Assembly (NCBI GenBank): GCA_047602425.1
Contig: JASGHG010000001.1
Coordinates: 224,001 to 288,000 of the forward strand
Direction: 5' to 3'
DNA length: 64,000 nucleotides
Source: Nibricoccus sp.
GTDB lineage: Bacteria; Verrucomicrobiota; Verrucomicrobiia; Opitutales; Opitutaceae
Position numbers and translations under genes: made by a program. Shown here piece by piece: positions 16,341-20,944 of the stretch. The notes beneath the pieces were generated by a model. The model saw only the letters and a list, made by a program, of their open reading frames with translations, did not search any database and was not told the origin of the DNA. How positions within the stretch are numbered: position 1 is the first letter of the stretch; every line of letters begins with the position of its first letter.

Positions 16341-17612
16341 TCATCTCGGATCGACCACGCGGCCGAGAAACAAACATGCGCCGCTCGCGCGATGCTGAAT
16401 GGCAAATAGAAATGGCCGGTCGACTTTCATTTCAACGGGCTTGGGGCGTTTGGTAATTCCAAATCCCGCAACCACCGTCACCACGGTAGCCGCGGCCGCC
16501 TCGGTTCCTTTTTCATCCACTTCGATAAAGGCCTTGTGGAATACATTGGAAAGCAGCAGGTAATCGTTCGGTTTGCGCGGAACCATCCGATCAAAATTGG
16601 CGCTACCTTTCGGTTTGTCAAAGGCGGTCATCATCCCCAAAACCTGAAACTCCTCCGCCAAAGCGACGCCTTGCGGCTCAATTTTGAATTTCGGCAGATG
16701 CAGGATCACTTCCGTTTCAGCCGCCTTTGCACAATCAGCCAGGATCTGTGGCGTCAGGATTTTTTCGACTGACGTCACGCTGGTATTCTTGTTGGGCAAA
16801 AGAACCAACAGTTGGAGTTCCTCGCCGACATAGCGAATCGTCACCGCGGAAAATCCCTCGCCGCGCATAAAACCGAAATGCCGCTGCGCCTGCATTGTCG
16901 GCACCTTCGCCTCCAATTTACCATCGACAAAAAACGTTTCTGTCTTTGTCCCGTATTCTGAAAACTCGTGCGCCCACGGGGCCTTCAGCCAAACTGCGTT
17001 CACCAGGGTCAGCCGAGTCTGGGAATCCAATCCACGCGGCGGAATGACATTGCGGATTCGTTCGTGCGTCTGCTGTGCCACCCATTGGTTGATTTCCTCG
17101 CGCACTTTCTCGGCGTTGTTCCGGAAATCCACCGCTTGAAAAGACGCGCCGTGGTCCGTCTGGACTTTGGTTAAAAATGCAGAGCGAAAAGCATAACCAG
17201 ACTGGCCGTACAAACGATTCGCCACATTCAAGGAGATGGGTTCGCTTGGCCCACCATACGCATTCGATTTCTCCACCATTTTCGCCGAACGAAGACAAAC
17301 ACCGTTCAATTCATGCACGAAAGCATCGAATGAACGGTGCAGCGCCGCGTCGTCGACGGGATAATGCAGCACCTTCGCCATTTCCGCCTTGGTCTCGCCA
17401 TCGGCCCCAGCGTAGGTCATCGCGAGAGCCGATTGGATTGAGTACGGCGAAATCAGCGCGTTCTCGTTTGTCTTGGCCACGCGAGGGAGCAGGTCGAGGT
17501 CGAGCGCGTTCATCGAATTGGCTGCGATATCGAGTTCACCTGCCACGGATATTTGAGCCGCTGTCAGGCTCATTGACGCCATGCAGCAGAGGAAAACTTT
17601 TTTAAGAAACAT
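16341..17612 (-). CDS. Secreted serpin (serine protease inhibitor)
   Basis: Signal peptide; N.LISPYSI..ALAM.YAGA.GET, INQWV, LVNAVW.K..W, LHLPKFKI, HKAFIEVDEKGTEAAAAT, VDRPFLFAI, LFLGRV.DP. Confidence 0.95.
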   Translation of the reverse strand: MFLKKVFLCCMASMSLTAAQISVAGELDIAANSMNALDLDLLPRVAKTNENALISPYSIQSALAMTYAGADGETKAEMAKVLHYPVDDAALHRSFDAFVHELNGVCLRSAKMVEKSNAYGGPSEPISLNVANRLYGQSGYAFRSAFLTKVQTDHGASFQAVDFRNNAEKVREEINQWVAQQTHERIRNVIPPRGLDSQTRLTLVNAVWLKAPWAHEFSEYGTKTETFFVDGKLEAKVPTMQAQRHFGFMRGEGFSAVTIRYVGEELQLLVLLPNKNTSVTSVEKILTPQILADCAKAAETEVILHLPKFKIEPQGVALAEEFQVLGMMTAFDKPKGSANFDRMVPRKPNDYLLLSNVFHKAFIEVDEKGTEAAAATVVTVVAGFGITKRPKPVEMKVDRPFLFAIQHRASGACLFLGRVVDPR

Positions 17613-17684: not shown

Positions 17685-18431
17685 TCAGAGACGCGCCAGC
17701 CACCAAGCTACCACGCTCGTCACAAAGGCCCAACTGAAGCTGATCAACGTGCCGATGGTGATGTATTCGGCTTCCATCCGATTTTCCCTGTCCTTTAGTT
17801 CGCCAAAGCGAAAAATCGATTTCGCCGCCACTAGAAAACCGACACCCGCGAGATGTCCCATGCCAATGAGCATGAAGATGAGCAGGCGTTCCATTTGGCC
17901 GATCACGCGTCCGCCATTCGTTAGACCGCGCGCCTTGGCCCCCTCACCCGCGCCGATGTTTGCGCGCTCGATTTCGTCCAGATACGGCTTCACCCAAAAG
18001 CCGACGAGGATGCCGCCCACCCGGACGCAGAGAACAAAGCCCGTCGCGAGAATCCAGCAACGCCAGGCCAGCAGCCCGAAACGGTTGCCCCAAAGCGTCA
18101 GTTCCCCCTGCCGTGTAAACATCCATGCGAGAAGCGCCACCACGGCCAGATGCGCCGCCTGATCGAGCAGAAAAACGCGCAACGATCCACGAGCCTGAGC
18201 CTTAAGATGATCGATCGCCGCATGACTGAGAAAAACAAACGCCGGCAAAAGCCAAAGATCCCAACGCCCTGCCGCAACATAGGCCAGCGCCGCAGCGATC
18301 AAGCTGTGCAGCAGCAAGACCGGCGTGCGCTTCTTCTCCTTCACCATCCAGTCCGGTTGAAAAACAAAATCCGCCAGCGCATGCGCAGCCAGCAGCGAGA
18401 GTCCGAGATCGATCTGGGCGTGGGTCAACAT
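17685..18431 (-). CDS. DUF3307-family membrane protein
   Basis: AHALADFVFQP..MV..K, LLHS, SHAAID, FLLDQAAH, GRVIGQMERLL, AAKSIFRF, EYITIGTLISF. Confidence 0.85.
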   Translation of the reverse strand: MLTHAQIDLGLSLLAAHALADFVFQPDWMVKEKKRTPVLLLHSLIAAALAYVAAGRWDLWLLPAFVFLSHAAIDHLKAQARGSLRVFLLDQAAHLAVVALLAWMFTRQGELTLWGNRFGLLAWRCWILATGFVLCVRVGGILVGFWVKPYLDEIERANIGAGEGAKARGLTNGGRVIGQMERLLIFMLIGMGHLAGVGFLVAAKSIFRFGELKDRENRMEAEYITIGTLISFSWAFVTSVVAWWLARL

Positions 18432-18454
18432 GGGGGTATTACGGGATTTTTCTA

Positions 18455-18505
18455 TTACAACCTACCAAGGTTGTTTTTACTATTTACAACTTCCTGAGGT
18501 TGTAA
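18455..18505. promoter_or_regulatory. Two tandem palindromes (TTACAACCT-N4-AGGTTGTAA consensus), candidate operators
   Basis: ACAACCT-ACCA-AGGTTGT at 18457-18474 and TTACAACTT-CCTG-AGGTTGTAA at 18484-18505, period 29 bp, in an AT-rich intergenic gap. Confidence 0.7.
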
Positions 18506-18513
18506 GCCGAAAA

Positions 18514-19176
18514 TCAAAGTTTTCCAAGGCGGGCTTCCACCAAAATAAGCGCCTCCTCCAGCGCCGGCCAATTCGCTGCGTCAAGGTGCTTGGTCACGGC
18601 CTGCTGACTCACCTTGCCTGGCCAGGCACCGGCGATTTTCTCCTGCGTCCAACCACGCAAGGCACCACAGATGGCTCGCGCCTGCCGGCCGGTCCAGCCC
18701 TGGACGATGACATCCATCAACCGCACAATCACAGCCATGGCGTCGTCGCCGGCTTCGCCGGGGAGCGCGAGTTGCAGCCGCTGCTTGCCGGGAATCTGTT
18801 CCAACAGGCGACCGGAAAGCCGATAAGCCTCGCCGTCGCCCTCGGAAACGCGATCGCGCACAAAATCCACCATACCAACCGCAATCGCCAGGCGCGTGTC
18901 GAGTCCACGACCGCGTTCCGCCGCCGTGCGCAGGCAGGCGCGAAAAAACAAACCCACGCGCAGGCTGGCCGTCGGATCGCTCACGAGCAGTTGCCAGCCA
19001 TCGCCGCGAAAAACGTCGACATCCATCGGCACGATATCGCCAAACAAACCGCGGGTATCGCGCGAAGCTTTCGCGATGAGTTCCGGCAGCTGCCTGCGTT
19101 GCGCCTTGGGCAACTTGGAGGAATCGACAATGTCGCCGGTGATGACGGCGTATTTTTTTGTGGGGGCGATTTTCAT
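18514..19176 (-). CDS. SatD-family protein: class III nucleotide-cyclase-like domain + C-terminal HTH
   Basis: YAVITGDIVDSS, VFRGDGWQ, TRLAIAVG, GEAYRLSGRLL; C-terminal WTQEKIA...VSQQAVTKHL. Start at ATG 19176, since the longer ORF overlaps recJ. Confidence 0.82.
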   Translation of the reverse strand: MKIAPTKKYAVITGDIVDSSKLPKAQRRQLPELIAKASRDTRGLFGDIVPMDVDVFRGDGWQLLVSDPTASLRVGLFFRACLRTAAERGRGLDTRLAIAVGMVDFVRDRVSEGDGEAYRLSGRLLEQIPGKQRLQLALPGEAGDDAMAVIVRLMDVIVQGWTGRQARAICGALRGWTQEKIAGAWPGKVSQQAVTKHLDAANWPALEEALILVEARLGKL

Positions 19177-19225: not shown

Positions 19226-20944
19226 TCAACCCGTCGTCTTCCGCCAATCGATGAGTTCGAGCTGCAGGAGTTTGCGATCGTTGAAATAGTTCCACGTGAG
19301 TTCGACCGCGAGATCGACGGGCACGCCCACCGGCGGAAGGCGATCGGCCATTTTCCATGCAACGCCAAACAGGCGCCGGCCGCGGCCATCGTCGAAGCTG
19401 AAGCGGAAATGTTGCTCTTTAAAAATTTCCGGGCGCTGGTTGAAAACCACACCGCTCAGTCCAAAAACAGGTTCAGGATTGCCCTGGCCGAAGGGATGCA
19501 ACTCGGCGAGTTCGTCCATGAGCTGGTCGCGAATTTGCTCGGGCTTGATCCAGGCCGCGAGATCGAGGCGGGCTTCGATCAGGTCGTTGCCGGCATGATG
19601 GCGCACGGCATCGGCGAAGCGCGTGCGGAAAACATCGAGGCGCGGTTTCTCAATCGAAACGCCGACCGCCATGGGATGGCCGCCCCAACTGGTGAGATGC
19701 TCGGTGCAAAGCCCAAGCACATCGACGAGGCTCACGCCGTCGACGCTGCGACCCGAACCTTTCGCCAAGTTTCCTTCGTTGCCCAGAACGACGCATGGAC
19801 GGTTGTATTTGCGCGTCACTCGTCCGGCCACGATGCCGACGACACCGGGATGCCAGTTGTCGCCATAAAGCACGATGCCGGGCCAGTCGGAAAACTGCTG
19901 CTCGATCATCTGCTCGGCTTCCTCGGTGATCTGGCGTTCGATGTCCTGACGCTCGCGGTTAAACGCGTCGAGCTGGCGCGCGGTTTCGCGGCAAAATTTT
20001 TCATCCTCGCTCAACATGAGCTCTACAGAAAGCGCGGCATCGGCGAGACGTCCGCTGGCGTTGATGCGCGGCCCAAGGCGGAACGAGATATCGACGGGCA
20101 TGATCTCGTTTTCGGTTTTCACGCCGGCGACCTGCATGAGCGCGCAAAGGCCGGGGCGCTGGGTCGTCTGCAAAATCTTCAGCCCCTGCCGTGCGATGAT
20201 GCGGTTTTCGCCGCGCAAGGGCACGAGATCCGCCACCGTGCCGAGCGCCGCAAGATCGAGGTAATCGCGGAGTTTGATGCGAAACGCGACCGGGTGATTT
20301 TCGGCACGCAATAATTTCAACAAGCCATGCGCGAGTTTGAAAACGAGGCCGACTGTGCAGAGGTGGCGCCACGGTTCGTCGCCGCCGTCGTTGTCGACGT
20401 GCGGATTGATCAGGATGCCTTGATCGAGCGGCCGTTCTTTCGAGCGATGATGATCGACCACAAGAACGTCGACACCCTGCGCGACAAGATAGGCGACTTC
20501 ATCGATGGAATTGGTGCCGCAGTCGAGGGCGACGAAAAGCGCCGGCTTGCCGCCCTCCAGCGCGCGGTCGATTGCGCTGCGCGACAAACCATAACCATCT
20601 TCCATGCGTCGTGGCACGACGAAGCGCGGATTGAGGCCGAAACGCCGCAGAATGCTCACTAACAGCGCGGTGCTGCTCACTCCGTCGACATCGTAGTCGC
20701 CAAGCACCACGACCTCCTCGCGTTGCGCGATGGCTTGGCGCAGGCGGGCGGCGCCAGCCTCGACGTTGCGCACGTGGAACGGATCGCTCAACTCGCTCAG
20801 CGCGGGATTGAGATATTTGGTTGCGACGGCTGGTTCGGACAAGCCATTGCGCAACAAGAGCTCCGCCAACACGGGACTGATGCCCGCGTTGCGGCTGAGC
20901 TCATCGACCGTACCGGCCGCGAGCGGATTGTAGATCCAACGCAT
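19226..20944 (-). CDS. recJ: ssDNA-specific exonuclease RecJ
   Basis: GDYDVDG, DGYGL, LDCG, VDHH, LGTVADLVPL, GPRINASGRL, GSGRS, GGHPMAVG, PFGQGNPEP. Confidence 0.96.
   Translation of the reverse strand: MRWIYNPLAAGTVDELSRNAGISPVLAELLLRNGLSEPAVATKYLNPALSELSDPFHVRNVEAGAARLRQAIAQREEVVVLGDYDVDGVSSTALLVSILRRFGLNPRFVVPRRMEDGYGLSRSAIDRALEGGKPALFVALDCGTNSIDEVAYLVAQGVDVLVVDHHRSKERPLDQGILINPHVDNDGGDEPWRHLCTVGLVFKLAHGLLKLLRAENHPVAFRIKLRDYLDLAALGTVADLVPLRGENRIIARQGLKILQTTQRPGLCALMQVAGVKTENEIMPVDISFRLGPRINASGRLADAALSVELMLSEDEKFCRETARQLDAFNRERQDIERQITEEAEQMIEQQFSDWPGIVLYGDNWHPGVVGIVAGRVTRKYNRPCVVLGNEGNLAKGSGRSVDGVSLVDVLGLCTEHLTSWGGHPMAVGVSIEKPRLDVFRTRFADAVRHHAGNDLIEARLDLAAWIKPEQIRDQLMDELAELHPFGQGNPEPVFGLSGVVFNQRPEIFKEQHFRFSFDDGRGRRLFGVAWKMADRLPPVGVPVDLAVELTWNYFNDRKLLQLELIDWRKTTG

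Follow-up and report, generated by a model that had tools for sequence, protein, structure and literature searches.

Autoregulated toxin–antitoxin (TA) operons, such as AbiE of type IV and the type II modules, carry tandem inverted-repeat operators. In systems of the Pycsar type and of the cyclic-oligonucleotide-based anti-phage signaling system (CBASS) type the cyclase is dispensable for growth; the class III cyclases themselves possess a substrate-specifying Lys/Glu and a transition-state Asn/Arg, a pair that the chemistry of the GGDEF and Cas10 palms does not require. The known effectors of Panoptes are of a two-helix beta-barrel type or of a CARF-TM type. In the sections of the Panoptes report drawn upon here, the palm protein OptS is required to restrain its membrane partner OptE (PMC12657218). 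The streptococcal sat operon codes for SatD (PF16264; 221 amino acids) and, as the second operon gene, directly downstream and overlapping satD by 8 nt, SatE (PF11750; 238 amino acids), as laid out in the passages of PMC4440532 cited here. We uncovered a pair in the same order, with products of 220 and 248 amino acids, in a 64,000-nucleotide stretch of the genome of Nibricoccus sp. (Verrucomicrobiota; Opitutaceae; contig JASGHG010000001.1, positions 224,001 to 288,000), hereafter the window; unlike the overlapping streptococcal genes, the two are separated by an 82-nt spacer with two palindromes. Both protein families are already catalogued, and the literature that we found on SatD, SatE and DUF3307 offers no more than a label of acid tolerance, taken over from the ffh operon, with no fold, DNA site, toxicity or mechanism; nor did we find a mechanism for the pair in print. 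We propose, at even chances, that the pair is a toxin–antitoxin-like guard, in which SatD, seated on the palindromes at the gene junction, would block read-through into a toxic membrane partner.

The satD-like gene (18514..19176, minus strand) encodes a predicted cyclase/palm-fold domain (about residues 1–159) followed by a C-terminal helix-turn-helix (HTH). Its product has no match in Pfam, NCBIfam or PADLOC (the latter two searched at E<=1); its Atlas neighbors are SatD clusters at 0.95–0.96, and PF16264 is matched by 23 of its 92 full-length relatives (E<=0.01). By homology it is a member of SatD, in a divergent subfamily. A profile built from the 92 relatives gathers 3495 clusters at 50% identity, and no fused or longer forms were seen among 7995 candidates, a weak piece of evidence. 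Foldseek searches with the AlphaFold2 (AF2) model (predicted local distance difference test, pLDDT, 94.6) recovered class III adenylyl cyclases first (E 1.4e-5), together with PycC (7r65, 1.8e-4) and a GGDEF domain (6.4e-4). With VIA, residues 1–159 tie between adenylyl/guanylyl cyclases (Z 10.5; root-mean-square deviation 3.7 over 147 aligned residues for the best class III match), GGDEF (10.3), GTP cyclohydrolase III (9.9) and Cmr2, a Cas10 palm (9.5). The front domain is thus predicted to fold like the class III cyclases and GGDEF domains. This bears out the first-pass annotation of the window, which had read a cyclase-like fold with an intact Asp pair from the letters and had placed both genes and their motifs correctly, at the ends given here.

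Three predicted metal/triphosphate-binding residues, D15 (19134-19132), D59 (19002-19000) and R95 (18894-18892), all on the minus strand within 18892..19134, are each invariant in three SatD alignments (92/92, 80/80 and 28/28 rows), the last comprising distant bacterial proteins and one archaeal protein; Q62 is likewise invariant. SatD is hence predicted to carry a metal–triphosphate site. The last of the cyclase motifs claimed at first, GEAYRLSGRL, can be aligned with the N..R helix of the class III cyclases, but its Arg does not hold across the family: where Arg123 falls on the class III Arg position, only 38/92, 18/80 and 8/28 rows have R. When the remaining class III catalytic positions are mapped by way of a weak alignment to Ma1120 (E 0.18), the substrate-Lys position is hydrophobic (V/I/T/L) and the Asn position variable (R/Q/H and others). 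Because the catalytic Asn/Arg and the specificity Lys are not conserved, canonical cyclic AMP chemistry is not predicted for SatD; a GGDEF- or Cas10-like chemistry may be possible.

The spacer houses two operator-like, unstranded palindromes of 22 bp. The first (18484..18505) lies 8 bp past the satD stop codon and has the best score in the genome (23.9), while the second (18455..18476), 23 bp ahead of the start codon of the partner, has the second best (20.9). Spaced 29 bp apart, they constitute the sole phased 29-bp pair in the 5.16-Mb genome, in which no further site pair that might point to a genome-wide SatD regulon was found. Across the family the 22-bp element has the consensus TTACAAGC-N6-GCTTGTAA and has 110 copies at the gene junction (57/72 loci) and 76 in the 250 nt ahead of satD, with 14 more in the rest of the 631 kb; adjacent junction sites are spaced 29 bp in 49/53 cases. 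As the site matrix was trained on junction sites, with the two of the window among the 110, the upstream sites are the independent part of this evidence. By placement, the arrays of 73 loci are at the junction only in 32 (the window included), on both sides of satD in 30 and upstream only in 10, with none phased in one. Once near-duplicates are removed, 10 of 26 upstream arrays have an oriented extended -10 element in the second site, none has an antisense one, and a TTGTA-type hexamer in the first site precedes the element by 17 bp; none of 52 junction arrays has an oriented extended -10, and eight overrun the start of the partner into its coding sequence. On account of this difference, the upstream arrays resemble promoter operators and the junction arrays a roadblock or loop anchor. 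Since the window has neither an array upstream of satD nor a match to a sigma-70 promoter between 17400 and 19500, its satD is likely transcribed by read-through from recJ, 49 nt away.

The HTH of SatD spans residues 163–200 (18577..18690, minus strand), which form three helices in the AF2 model; the matches to a profile of the C-terminal part are weak throughout (best E 0.011) and for the most part HTH proteins. Within its recognition helix, S190–H197 (18609-18586, minus strand), residues 191, 192 and 196 co-vary with operator bases 3, 4 and 7. Of 80 loci, we analyzed the 73 that have a phased pair, leaving out seven that scored <23 of 28. Residue 191 pairs with base 3 as Q–A in 69 loci and R–G in four, and residue 192 with base 4 as Q–C in 70 and P–T in three; for residue 196, K/R goes with C at base 7 in 25/25 and Q/D/E/L with G in 47/48. 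Each of the three ranks top among the 220 SatD columns for its base. The usual side-chain preferences are Gln for A, Arg/Lys for G and Asp/Glu for C, and the observed pairings fit them. On a tree built from residues 8–158 alone, with the HTH excluded, the K/R state of residue 196 changes six times, on all six occasions with base 7, the joint state changing seven times; residues 191 and 192 change twice each, together with their bases. The independent pairs drawn from well-supported branches are all concordant (3/3, 2/2 and 2/2). Among 27 new loci, 13 have a phased pair above the shuffled maxima, and in these, several of which are kin, the code is right in 11/12 for residue 191, 10/10 for 192 and 12/13 for 196. 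In a copy on an archaeal plasmid the helix reads QQAVSK, and the arms are identical to those of the window. Residue 193 had tracked base 6 more loosely in the first locus set. Because the bases change in step with recognition-helix residues, the HTH of SatD very likely binds the palindromes. The control of the membrane gene's transcription by SatD, which had been suggested from the letters, now has operator sites and a helix–base co-variation behind it. A second subfamily (nine loci with a helix like SRVAVYKN) has a partner with an unrelated N-terminal part, and its upstream DNA bears other repeats with a 28–29 bp period, whose differing geometry fails the 22-bp test.

The partner gene (17685..18431, minus strand) codes for a predicted eight-helix membrane protein of the SatE type. 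Its model (pLDDT 94.4) has eight long helices, is all-helical and lacks strands, and its basic loops would lie on one side of the membrane, adjoining both conserved clusters. Compared with solved structures, it has no relative by sequence, and the best matches by Foldseek (E 0.42) and VIA (Z 7.3) do not by themselves imply a new fold; a phospholipase C/P1 or other hydrolase identity was considered and dropped, with no sequence or fold match to assign it. DUF3307 (PF11750) is matched by residues 12–106, the N-terminal half only, at 65.8 bits against a cut-off of 23, and it is the sole family matched by the partners (58/58). This four-helix domain (18102..18431, minus strand) bears H17, D21, H42, H70, D74, D90 and H94. 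One alignment had been filtered on the first His/Asp motif (57/71 partners), and conservation was recounted over 69 partners free of that filter: the His/Asp positions are kept in 62–65 of the 69 close partners, whereas they are lost in many distant ones. The C-terminal core (residues 169–231; 17739..17927, minus strand) displays E181, R182, K204, S205, R208, E222, Y223, G227 and S231, of which R182, K204, S205, R208, E222, G227 and S231 are kept in 69/69.

This C-terminal half always follows satD: it occurs in 27 of 401 genomes of the window's phylum, with a satD-like open reading frame (ORF) directly upstream in 26, and it can be free-standing (frames of 132–159 amino acids) or joined to an unrelated N-terminal part. 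The His/Asp half is also found free-standing without satD at the three loci examined, as short lone DUF3307 proteins (frames of 117–165 amino acids), and the jumbo phage RsoM2USA encodes one of 134 amino acids (ORF187), as described in the part of PMC8504454 referred to here. As such short proteins occur without satD, the domain has an existence of its own. By these comparisons the constant part of the partner is the C-terminal half, the His/Asp domain being optional and accessory across the family. The metal-site residues picked out in the first-pass annotation are present in the window and in most close partners, but many SatD partners lack the domain or have it in degenerate form, and the annotation's emphasis on a membrane metallo-hydrolase was misplaced.

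The genetic data come from streptococci, and we cite them as far as they are given in the portions of three papers used here. In Streptococcus pyogenes satD is accessory (178/249 genomes) yet essential in 9/9 transposon sequencing (Tn-seq) sets, and its single companion in the operon, likewise accessory, is non-essential in 9/9 (PMC11323703). An earlier study, whose data are partly reused there, has satD as essential and satE as non-essential in both of its strains (PMC4440532). As satE itself is non-essential, polarity on it is excluded as the cause of the essentiality of satD. The Tn-seq values in Streptococcus mutans are 0.41/0.21/0.21 for satD, 1.46/1.31/1.66 for satE and 3.8/2.2/1.2 for satC (PMC5806208). 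Loss of satE came at no cost in any of the data sets examined. By analogy, this asymmetry points to SatD restraining, rather than activating, its partner.

The linkage of the two genes, a point on which the initial reading depended, is strong: the partner is directly downstream of satD in 71 of 80 GTDB loci, the other nine comprising three at a contig edge, two with a partial partner, one with the partner 2.4 kb away and three lacking it. In the one with the distant partner, this partner is intact; an insertion of 2.4 kb (L077:5693-8068) that carries a P63C-domain gene parts it from satD, and the upstream array is retained. A SatD clade of three loci (L040, L061, L079) has neither partner nor phased sites and in each case directly follows a gene for a major facilitator superfamily (MFS) transporter; it is possibly a re-purposed regulator. 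In L079 another HTH-like fragment lies downstream, at a distance of about 1 kb. In the 401 genomes of the phylum SatD is matched in 22 and the partner profile in 33, and on these counts the distribution of the pair is patchy and accessory. There is no conserved third gene beside it. We scanned 117 of 147 immediate neighbors, near-duplicate loci being left out, and 65 of them have a Pfam family. By our own classification and as a raw count, 12 of the 65, in nine loci, are of defense or TA type; the other 53 are not and are mostly housekeeping. One of 58 upstream neighbors, at an Anaerolineaceae locus (L054:4460-4903), is a stand-alone cyclic nucleoside monophosphate-binding protein just upstream of satD.

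Matches came from fifteen plasmid records. A 3.77-kb mobilizable plasmid of Escherichia coli and Klebsiella has rop, mobA, one ORF of 51 amino acids and the pair, with no other recognizable cargo. In L137 (NC_019077.1) and six Klebsiella plasmids, of 3.8–4.4 kb, the satD-like and DUF3307 genes are the only recognizable cargo; here the partner is enlarged to about 330 amino acids, and no phased pair stands above shuffles in the 22-bp frame. Other plasmid copies lie among TA genes, beside Pycsar, TIR and ImmA/IrrE genes, beside an ATPase–helicase pair, or among metabolic genes. On a Sphingomonas plasmid the adjoining Pycsar locus (L141:6584-9449) has its cyclase and effector genes separated by an E2-associated cysteine-rich gene. 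No phage or prophage copies were found in the phage records searched, three weak IMG/VR matches being unconfirmed by the profiles, and the complete E. coli genomes yielded no match.

In the window the pair sits between the co-oriented recJ (19226..20944, minus strand), a flank outside the module that ends 49 nt ahead of satD, and a serpin gene 3' of the partner (16341..17612, minus strand; Pfam E 6e-97), which lies within a stretch of lower G+C content. A genome of the same genus (G168) has the order recJ-satD-partner-moaA with no serpin between; as moaA directly follows the partner there, the serpin is the window's own insertion. The earlier description of the pair as an insert between recJ and the serpin gene therefore needs qualification: nine Verrucomicrobiota loci, including that of the window, share the position after recJ, but among 27 other genomes of the family with a full flank only one has the pair there, and the serpin is specific to the window. 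The gene content of the slot 3' of recJ differs among almost all of the family genomes examined (L147–L175), and the slot looks like a variable-cargo site.

The mechanism that we propose runs as follows. SatD would likely bind both junction palindromes as dimers, with the HTH, as the co-variation strongly argues, reading the arms by residue 191 at base 3, residue 192 at base 4 and residue 196 at base 7. Always made by read-through from recJ, SatD once bound would act as a roadblock ahead of the partner gene; in many relatives an extra site pair on the satD promoter would serve autorepression or looping. Judging from other organisms, the partner without SatD would harm the cell by means of the conserved three-helix core at its C-terminal end, in which Glu, Arg and Lys are buried, the His/Asp domain being an optional add-on. 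The least certain steps are those of the trigger: the cyclase-fold domain likely binds a metal–nucleoside triphosphate (NTP) as a sensor that sets the grip of SatD on DNA, and a disturbed nucleotide pool or the loss of SatD, be it by stress, phage shut-off or plasmid loss, would then release the partner. The pair parallels TA operons as a tightly linked two-gene unit with the putative antitoxin first and its HTH very likely seated on tandem palindromes over a promoter, in being accessory and plasmid-borne, and, going by S. pyogenes, in an essential upstream and a dispensable downstream gene. It differs from them in the second or sole operator array between the genes (62/73 loci), in the cyclase-fold domain of the regulator and in the integral membrane partner. 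More specifically, SatD–SatE could be a widespread and so far undescribed anti-phage guard, in which the cyclase-fold site, by binding NTP or making an inhibitory nucleotide, monitors the nucleotide pool alongside the transcriptional block on a membrane-disrupting effector of a new fold, and a phage that interferes with nucleotides or with the expression of host genes would lift both brakes; this version we put forward as a doubtful one.

Several observations weigh against such a guard. A pure repressor alone leaves the invariance of D15, D59 and R95 unexplained. The toxicity of the partner is an argument by analogy from one species; in the cited part of the S. mutans study satD, while shifted in the same direction as in S. 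pyogenes, stays above the authors' essentiality threshold of 0.1 (PMC5806208), and the streptococcal proteins are likened to the window pair by name, order and size. The tree-aware tests of the code are singly under-powered (p 0.25–0.5), 14 of the 27 new loci have no phased pair above shuffles in the 22-bp frame, and the rule linking residue 193 to base 6 was dropped after the new loci gave S/T with G in one, a tie in one and a wrong call in five. One genome (G004) has an intact partner and no satD within the 1.7 kb to the contig end, and another (G163) carries both genes in pieces; in the 401-genome set the losses number two for the partner versus up to two for satD. Housekeeping genes, finally, are most of the pair's neighbors.

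A rather improbable alternative is that SatD works as an active synthase whose constant output of a (cyclic) nucleotide holds the partner shut, much as in Panoptes, DNA binding merely setting expression. The nucleotide would fill the conserved Arg/Lys/Glu/Tyr pocket of the partner, and the partner would open once phage sponges or nucleases had depleted the signal. The invariance of D15, D59, R95 and Q62 and the fold ties with GGDEF and Cas10 palms favor this, as does the precedent of OptS, which in the part of its report used here has just two Asp residues and is needed to restrain the toxic membrane protein OptE (PMC12657218). The two systems share a small palm-fold protein with two catalytic-type Asp residues, an adjoining membrane protein and the asymmetry between an essential and a dispensable gene; the defense- or TA-type neighbors (12 of the 65 annotated) and the plasmid copies beside Pycsar/TIR genes and an ATPase–helicase pair add to the case. 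However, SatD has an HTH and its own operator arrays, and its partner is all-helical, with three to eight helices and no fold match: the strandless model and the lack of a CARF match leave the known Panoptes effector types unmatched. The mCpol family had no Pfam match in the 92 SatD relatives and is not among the fold matches listed, though these lists need not show every match, and there was no PADLOC match. The Tn-seq asymmetry is explicable by repression alone, most loci lie outside defense islands, and phage or prophage copies were not found. Panoptes remains the closest working analogy for the guard, to which SatD catalysis may or may not apply.

Also unlikely, in our estimate, is an ordinary one-component regulator, with SatD sensing a nucleotide or pyrophosphate metabolite and controlling a physiological transporter or hydrolase, whose overproduction would be a mere burden. 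It would sit well with the 53 of 65 annotated neighbors that are not of defense or TA type and the lack of a conserved third gene, with the mild phenotype in the S. mutans data cited, with the His/Asp cluster kept in 62–65 of 69 close partners, and with the stable position after recJ in several Opitutaceae. It sits less well with the patchy, accessory distribution and the role of the pair as sole cargo of a small plasmid, with the lack of a regulon beyond the pair, and with the loss of satE at no cost in the data sets examined. The two-tier, tight control would also seem to exceed the need of a benign gene.

Activation, as in Pycsar or CBASS, where infection would turn SatD on and its cyclic nucleotide would activate a membrane effector, had been the architecture invoked by the first-pass annotation and now appears very improbable. 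In its favor are the best Foldseek matches, class III cyclases including PycC (7r65, E 1.8e-4), and the gene order of cyclase plus membrane gene; the fold, the metal-binding Asp pair and the fourth-strand Arg are indeed shared with PycC of the PycC–PycTM pair. But the family does not conserve the Lys, Asn and Arg of the class III cyclases, SatD has a fused HTH, and neither window protein matches the Pycsar/CBASS families in PADLOC or NCBIfam at E<=1. The cyclases of such systems are dispensable, whereas satD is an essential gene in the S. pyogenes data cited, and the Tn-seq asymmetry points to restraint, not activation. Highly doubtful, too, is the notion that the palindromes serve as hairpins in RNA, in recombination or for some other host regulator, with the SatD tail doing something else: both arms do vary together, as stems would, and one window palindrome, read on the opposite strand, scores as a terminator-like hairpin, but the arm bases track SatD recognition-helix residues across phyla and in an archaeon, the 29-bp phase is fixed, the sites upstream of satD overlap -35/-10 elements, and the genome has no other site pair.

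Returning to the toxin–antitoxin-like guard, a family of about 3,500 clusters (at 50% identity) in bacteria and archaea, labeled "acid tolerance", gains a testable mechanism. The guard model would resolve a puzzle raised in the part of PMC11323703 cited here, namely that an accessory gene of S. pyogenes comes out as essential. It would also add a nucleotide-cyclase fold inside a DNA-binding regulator, a roadblock formed by an inter-gene operator array, and a membrane effector with no fold match. The residue-to-base code, for its part, makes exact binding predictions and offers a natural set of orthogonal repressor–operator pairs.

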